Below, piece after piece: positions 61,295 to 61,447 of a stretch of 64,000 nucleotides of DNA (position 1 is the stretch's first letter; each line of letters opens with the position of its first letter). Under the pieces are notes generated by a model, which was given only the letters and a program-made list of their open reading frames with translations, had not been told where the DNA came from and ran no database searches. Source of the DNA: Escherichia coli (GTDB lineage: Bacteria; Pseudomonadota; Gammaproteobacteria; Enterobacterales; Enterobacteriaceae). The stretch lies in assembly GCF_016903815.1 (NCBI RefSeq), contig NZ_CP069973.1; one strand, 5' to 3'. The translations under genes and the position numbers were made by a program.

Positions 61295-61339
61295 GAGGGC
61301 TTCTCTCCAGTGAAAAATAGTGCGACTGCGTTGTTATGC

Positions 61340-61370
61340 ACTGCACTGTACCAGTACACGAGTACAAAAG
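61340..61370 (-). promoter_or_regulatory. candidate TrpR operator-like palindromes in mtr promoter
   Basis: gtactcgtgtactggtacagtgcag on mtr strand (GTAC...AGTAC symmetry); mtr remembered as TrpR-repressed; not aligned to a matrix. Confidence 0.4.
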
Positions 61371-61373
61371 ACA

Positions 61374-61405
61374 GAAAAAAAGCCCCGATGGTAAAAATCG
61401 GGGCT
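61374..61405 (-). terminator. intrinsic terminator of deaD (lies within mtr upstream region)
   Basis: Minus-strand agccccgat-ttttacc-atcggggct hairpin followed by seven T. Confidence 0.8.
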
Positions 61406-61422
61406 GTATATATTATTTTACA
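61405..61422. promoter_or_regulatory. TyrR-box-like sequence upstream of mtr
   Basis: tgtata-tattat-tttaca fits TGTAAA-N6-TTTACA with one mismatch in the left half. Confidence 0.5.
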
Positions 61423-61447
61423 GATTGTGTTCGCTGTTTAGCGAAGA

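Follow-up and report, generated by a model that had tools for sequence, protein, structure and literature searches.

How the transcription of one gene is ended and that of the next one regulated within a single short stretch of DNA is the question raised by the deaD-mtr intergenic region of Escherichia coli, which was analyzed here within a window of 64 kb (64,000 nucleotides of contig NZ_CP069973.1, the whole stretch of DNA considered). A sequence-only reading of this window had claimed that the deaD terminator and the regulator sites of mtr share about 150 bp, and the interval concerned is in fact the exact deaD-mtr intergenic region of E. coli (61295-61447, 153 bp). That reading's placement of its three elements (a TyrR-box-like sequence, a terminator hairpin and GTAC palindromes) stands, with a correction as to strand: both genes and all of the elements are read on the minus strand.

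A 351-bp query over the region found a match in 5,425 of 5,426 complete E. coli genomes, with deaD and mtr annotated on every match listed (mtr in 5,425 E. coli genomes). Compared with K-12 MG1655 there are only three SNPs over 186 aligned bases, two of which closely follow the deaD stop codon and the third the putative -10 hexamer, and hence the K-12 literature is applicable to the present sequence. A scan of a genome collection with Mtr gave 80 Enterobacteriaceae loci, from which 74 distinct sequences were aligned, and DeaD is encoded upstream on the same strand in all 72 of the loci that have enough flank. The features of the region are as follows, with the evidence for each given in brackets.

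61452-61435, minus strand: candidate for the weak, distal TyrR box, CGTAATCTTCGCTAAACA, which shares bases with the deaD stop codon (G-N14-C kept, consensus matched at 8 of 12 positions)
61450-61448, minus strand: deaD stop codon TAA, which closes the coding sequence of the DeaD RNA helicase (open reading frame list, 651-aa frame; K-12 deaD ends at the equivalent base)
61422-61405, minus strand: strong TyrR box TGTAAAATAATATATACA, with the plus-strand reading tgtatatattattttaca (consensus, matrix, conservation)
61405-61381, minus strand: predicted deaD intrinsic-terminator hairpin with a 9-bp stem, AGCCCCGAU/AUCGGGGCU, and a 7-nt loop (terminator scan, folding, alignment)
61381-61375, minus strand: T7 run, the U-tract (read from the sequence; invariant or nearly so in 74 sequences)
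61369-61374, minus strand: putative weak -35 hexamer CTGTCT (geometry: 42 bp from the strong-box centre and 18 bp upstream of the -10)
61365-61348, minus strand: TrpR operator GTACTCGTGTACTGGTAC (TrpR matrix, conservation, published repression)
61350-61345, minus strand: putative -10 hexamer TACAGT (conserved block; TACAAT in several genera)
61303-61308, minus strand: mtr Shine-Dalgarno sequence GGAGAG (read from the sequence; 8 nt before the ATG)
60050-61294, minus strand: mtr coding sequence, tryptophan:H+ symporter, 414 aa (open reading frame and translation; ATG at 61294)

Along the minus strand the order is GCG TAA (the deaD stop), TCTTCGCTAAACAGCGAACACAATC, the strong TyrR box TGTAAAATAATATATACA, the hairpin, TTTTTTT (61381-61375), CTGTCTTTT, and the TrpR operator GTACTCGTGTACTGGTAC, and 3' of the operator follow AGTGCAG, some 35 bases, GGAGAG, 8 nt, and the ATG (61294). 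The GGAG block of the Shine-Dalgarno sequence is conserved in the wider alignment.

The deaD terminator hairpin

The strong terminator hairpin that had been assigned to deaD from the letters alone was recovered at the same coordinates by a terminator scan, by folding, and by covariation among the 74 sequences. It starts about 42-45 nt past the deaD TAA on the same strand and reads AGCCCCGAT-TTTTACC-ATCGGGGCT on the minus strand, the stem arms GCCCCGAT (61404-61397) and ATCGGGGC (61389-61382) being flanked by an A·U pair. The first T of the T7 run also closes the stem and the last abuts the -35 hexamer. To a consensus scan the element looks like a terminator, its 9 pairs (6 being G-C) enclosing a loop of 7 nt and a tail rich in T coming after them. 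The 34-nt module folds at −15.5 kcal/mol (z = −5.1), with none of 200 shuffles as stable, and in a stretch of 86 nt the terminator hairpin is the dominant structure (−21.6 kcal/mol, z = −4.8).

Across the ten stem pairs of the 74-sequence alignment, 97.2% of the cells are standard pairs, and paired cells fall to 27-53% when the 3' partner is slid. Compensatory change is seen in six of the ten pairs, none of 500 column shuffles reaching the observed values; examples are G-C to A-U and C-G to U-A, and the innermost pair occurs as C-G, A-U, U-A, and G-C. The loop is found in about 40 sequence variants. In the nine outer pairs there are 45 G·U cells, which pair only in the deaD-sense RNA, vs. no A·C cells, and since G·U pairs form only in that RNA it is the deaD-sense transcript that is under selection, rather than the symmetry of the DNA or the other strand. 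There is thus conservation of the hairpin at the level of RNA, and the aligned orthologues provide strong comparative evidence that it would serve as a functional intrinsic terminator of deaD, for which the exact termination point and the efficiency are model predictions.

The searched supplements of Adams 2021, Kim 2012, Yan 2018, and Dar 2018 contained no 3'-end or start-site entry for the position of the terminator. The supplementary table of Adams et al. 2021, which appears to be a Rho-inhibitor comparison, lists an antisense site within mtr (K-12 3305003, plus strand, roughly window 60480) and an internal deaD site (K-12 3307737, minus strand, roughly window 63214), both of which are away from the deaD terminator. 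Two other identities of the hairpin were considered and rejected. A bidirectional terminator is at odds with the plus-strand tail GTATATATTA, which is a poor U-tract, and with the G·U pairs, which are specific to the minus strand. In Rfam no family was found at threshold, the sub-threshold terminator-like matches having 17-24 bits against gathering scores of 42-54, and on these matches a known RNA family such as a 3'-UTR sRNA was set aside.

Regulator sites and core promoter of mtr

The hairpin had also been described as sitting between a TyrR-box-like 18-mer (61405-61422) and GTAC palindromes (61365-61348), and all three were located in that arrangement. A scan with TyrR and TrpR weight matrices had been set beforehand as the test that could refute the assignment of these sites, and the best matches in the 64 kb to the two matrices are the very sites that had been flagged. 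The TyrR matrix was built from 12 non-mtr boxes from the K-12 promoters of aroP, aroL, aroG, tyrR, tyrP, aroF, and tyrB, each of which agrees with the consensus at 8 or more of 12 positions and has the G-N14-C pair, and was scanned over all 64 kb on both strands. The 61405-61422 site ranks first in the window at 20.5 bits, the maximum of 20 shuffled windows being 17.3 and the training sites themselves ranging from 8.6 to 22.3 bits. It agrees with TGTAAA-N6-TTTACA at 11 of 12 positions, where a strong TyrR box is defined, in the passages of PMC4374768 on box strength, by at least 10 consensus matches of 12; it has the invariant G-N14-C pair, formed by positions 2 and 17 of TGTAAAATAATATATACA; and it is the sole match with one mismatch or fewer in the 64 kb, for which 0.14 would be expected. 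The box is conserved in 70 of the 74 distinct Enterobacteriaceae sequences. The second-best match to the TyrR matrix is TGTAAAAACAACTAGACA at 13797-13814, within the yhaK / yhaL / cyuA region, where there is also a dispersed repeat that E. coli genomes carry at a median of 26 places; at 16.2 bits it is below the shuffle maximum of 17.3 and is probably a chance match.

The TrpR matrix was derived from the trpL, aroH, trpR, and aroL operators, with mtr excluded. It ranks 61348-61365 first in the 64 kb at 18.9 bits (shuffle maximum 15.4), and 16 of the 18 operator columns are invariant across the 74 sequences. Secondary matches at 33616-33633 (15.65 bits) and 20606-20623 (15.05 bits), for a shuffle maximum of 15.35, are likely due to chance.

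Both regulators have an established connection with this gene. Across the Enterobacteriales mtr is in the TyrR regulon, and it is activated by TyrR and repressed by TrpR (PMC5343134). The relevant passages of PMC4374768 place one strong and one weak TyrR box upstream of the mtr -35, with the strong box centred 42 bp upstream of it, and have TyrR activate mtr via the alpha C-terminal domain of RNA polymerase. Activation by TyrR has been reported to require a strong box upstream of the -35, and for K-12 the binding of TyrR to the mtr box and the need for this box in regulation are likewise reported. From the matrix matches together with the published K-12 work it follows that the TyrR- and TrpR-like boxes are the known, experimentally characterised sites of mtr, and activation by TyrR and repression by TrpR would operate here as they do in that work.

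The core promoter can be placed relative to these sites. A block, GGTACAGT, is conserved in all 74 aligned sequences with G/A at hexamer position 5 as its sole variation, and at 61350-61345 it appears to provide the only plausible -10. The TrpR operator spans the spacer and the first three bases of this putative -10. The CTGTCT hexamer is a poor match to the -35 consensus and is poorly conserved, as might be expected of an activator-dependent promoter, and we assign it by geometry and not by the quality of its sequence. The strong-box centre, at 61413.5, lies 42 bp or four turns from the centre of the putative -35, in agreement with the published distance. Transcription of mtr would start near 61337-61338. 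An attenuator or riboswitch in the mtr leader was also considered and was rejected, as the 5' UTR is no more stably folded than shuffled sequences (z = +0.25) and is poorly conserved.

The mtr promoter/operator of K-12, for which the sources are Heatwole and Somerville 1991, Sarsero, Wookey and Pittard 1991, and Sarsero and Pittard 1991 (all as cited in the mtr passages of PMC4374768), is the same locus, and the strong box, the TrpR operator, and the 42-bp distance from box to -35 all match the account in those passages, with no difference in kind. Compared as one of the TyrR class I promoters, which include E. coli tyrP and Enterobacter cloacae ipdC, mtr has its box centre 42 bp (four turns) from the -35 whereas that of ipdC is 33 bp (three turns) away, and at mtr the whole interval from box to -35 is occupied by the terminator of the upstream gene. 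The TrpR operator resembles those of trpLEDCBA, aroH, trpR, and aroL in being an 18-bp palindrome of the GTACT...AGTAC type that overlaps the core promoter, and its 18.9 bits compare with 17.8-24.7 bits for the training operators. Unlike the other TrpR operators, it has three GTAC(T) units at 8-bp spacing (GTACTcgtGTACTgGTAC), and it lies in the spacer/-10 region of a promoter that is also activator-dependent.

Readings of the nested arrangement

The terminator module, 31 bp from 61405 to 61375, exactly fills the gap between the strong TyrR box and the putative -35, and position 61405 is shared, being both the last base of the box and the first base of the stem. On this placement the sequence-only description of a terminator embedded in the mtr promoter holds literally. 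The order of TyrR box, hairpin, T-run, and TrpR operator is found in 70 of the 74 distinct sequences. The distance from box to operator is fixed to within a base or so, at 57 bp in 60 loci, 56 in 10, and 58 in 1 (71 loci); the operator-to-ATG distance is 48-75 bp and that from the deaD stop to the operator 66-85 bp. The near absence of indels, despite a loop saturated with substitutions, suggests a constraint on length, which would be consistent with the face-of-helix dependence of class I activation. In the Cedecea group (L054, L059, L067) and in Shimwellia (L079) the hairpin and the operator are kept but the place some 60 bp upstream of the operator where the TyrR box is conserved elsewhere holds no such box. 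Hence the terminator and TrpR control are the more widespread parts, and the distribution suggests that TyrR control of mtr has been gained or lost within the Enterobacteriaceae. As in canonical Rho-independent terminators between tandem genes, there is a GC-rich stem, a short loop, and a U-tract before the next promoter, but in contrast to the usual terminator-then-promoter arrangement the deaD terminator does not precede the whole regulatory region but lies within it, with the activator site on one side and the -35 on the other, and so the activator sites are transcribed within the deaD 3' UTR.

We consider it very probable that deaD termination and a TyrR-activated, TrpR-repressed mtr promoter are packed end to end at this locus, with the terminator insulating the one from the other. 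Transcripts of deaD would run through the TyrR box or boxes, form the 9-bp GC-rich hairpin, and be released in the U7 tract at about 61375-61381 with a 3' UTR of roughly 70 nt, and mtr would be transcribed from its own weak promoter, which begins right after the U-tract. Tryptophan-bound TrpR on the spacer/-10 operator would block RNA polymerase, and TyrR carrying phenylalanine or tyrosine would act as a class I activator by way of the alpha C-terminal domain from its site 42 bp, or four helical turns, upstream of the -35. The terminator would thereby insulate the TyrR/TrpR-controlled promoter from deaD transcription.

A rival to this, the read-through idea of the sequence-only reading, is that the terminator is leaky and that deaD transcription contributes materially to mtr expression, either because induction of deaD, a gene induced by cold shock, raises mtr mRNA, or in a variant because it occludes the mtr promoter and displaces TyrR. 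Transcription of the deaD 3' UTR takes in the TyrR boxes and the U-tract ends at the -35, so that a polymerase that reads through must cross the whole mtr promoter, and the terminator scan saw no second terminator before mtr. Such a contribution is nevertheless decidedly unlikely in our judgment, given that a 9-bp stem with 6 G-C pairs, an uninterrupted U7, and purifying as well as compensatory selection are the features of an efficient terminator and that mtr has a conserved promoter and operator of its own; from a canonical, strong-looking terminator a large read-through of deaD would not be expected. It could also be argued that the inverted repeat acts mainly as DNA, be it as a cruciform, a protein-binding palindrome, or a spacer for TyrR activation, and not as an RNA terminator. 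The repeat as found in E. coli is perfectly palindromic and folds on either strand, the spacing of box and operator is near-invariant (56-58 bp) as against some 40 loop variants, and by one published statement the in vitro effect of TyrR on mtr depends on supercoiling and on IHF/HU. The 45 G·U cells and the lack of A·C cells in the nine outer pairs, however, point to selection on the deaD-sense RNA, the U7 tract is present on the deaD-sense strand only, and the hairpin persists in the four taxa that are without a TyrR box, and we therefore hold a mainly DNA-level role to be very unlikely.

A further reading concerns the TyrR boxes themselves, which might harbor a cryptic promoter (TAAACA-17-AATAAT, 61440-61412, minus strand) that yields a tiny terminated RNA or competes, under repression by TyrR, with the mtr promoter. 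This is the single match of a sigma-70 consensus scan, for which 0.3 would be expected in shuffles, and TAAAAT occurs inside the box in many orthologues; but a likeness to -10 hexamers comes with the A/T-rich composition of TyrR boxes, the -35 half falls in the poorly conserved stretch between stop codon and box, and no Rfam family reached threshold. The sigma-70-like match is probably an effect of A/T-rich composition, and a functional promoter at this place seems to us extremely unlikely. Transcripts from it, were it active, would begin at the base of the terminator hairpin.

As to the reading that we prefer, that of a terminator followed end to end by a regulated promoter, the terminator DNA might have a second use, although we think this rather unlikely. 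The 31-bp length of the module may set the four-turn phasing from TyrR to the -35 (56-58 bp from box to operator in 71 of 71 loci); the T-tract, which is at the position of a proximal UP element, may offer a docking surface for the alpha C-terminal domain in TyrR activation; or termination of deaD could be made more efficient by a roadblock, namely TrpR or RNA polymerase sitting about 10 bp downstream of the U-tract. Taken together, and if true, these uses would couple deaD and mtr in both directions.

That mtr has TyrR boxes and a TrpR operator, and what these do to its expression, is already known and has been published since 1991, and the comparative conservation of mtr as a member of both regulons has likewise been published. 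The nested deaD terminator of fixed length is a neat detail, of a known kind and no surprise to a specialist. A search for literature that combines deaD and mtr, which did not extend to the primary papers of 1991, returned only unrelated papers. The locus offers an example of the tight nesting of a terminator and an activator-dependent promoter, the value of which lies in annotation and engineering: constructs of the mtr promoter that include the TyrR box necessarily carry a terminator as well.

The deaD stop-codon side of the mtr regulatory region

The regulatory region of mtr reaches into the 3' UTR of deaD and may even span its stop codon, and deletions or insertions made at that end of deaD (Keio-type scars, tags, terminator swaps) can therefore alter the regulation of mtr. 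How far the region extends depends on the distal, weak TyrR box, for which the sequence at 61435-61452 is a tentative candidate. It has the second-best local score with the TyrR matrix, which at 5.9 bits is only rank 63 in the window, and it is not conserved outside E. coli. The candidate begins 30 bp upstream of the strong box, where neighbouring boxes in aroP, aroL, tyrP, and aroF are 23 bp apart. In the account of mtr given in PMC4374768 the weak box is distal and is separated from the strong box by eight base pairs, which the offset of 30 bp would fit if the boxes are counted as 22-mers. Two SNPs fall in the candidate, which reads CTTCGCTAAACA here vs. CATCGCTGAACA in K-12, and its match to the consensus is 8 of 12 either way. 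A promoter-proximal weak box inside the hairpin was rejected: the matrix has no match in 61375-61404, and such a location would also run against the distal one stated in those passages of PMC4374768.

Two minor observations concern the same side of the region. A 6-bp hairpin, UUCGCU-AAAC-AGCGAA (61430-61445, minus strand), directly follows the deaD stop and overlaps the candidate weak box, and the two SNPs relative to K-12 lie in its 5' arm and its loop. The C-terminal tail of DeaD (window 61451-61650, minus strand) is a repetitive, arginine/glycine-rich segment, and its DNA is visibly repetitive just upstream of the mtr regulatory region.
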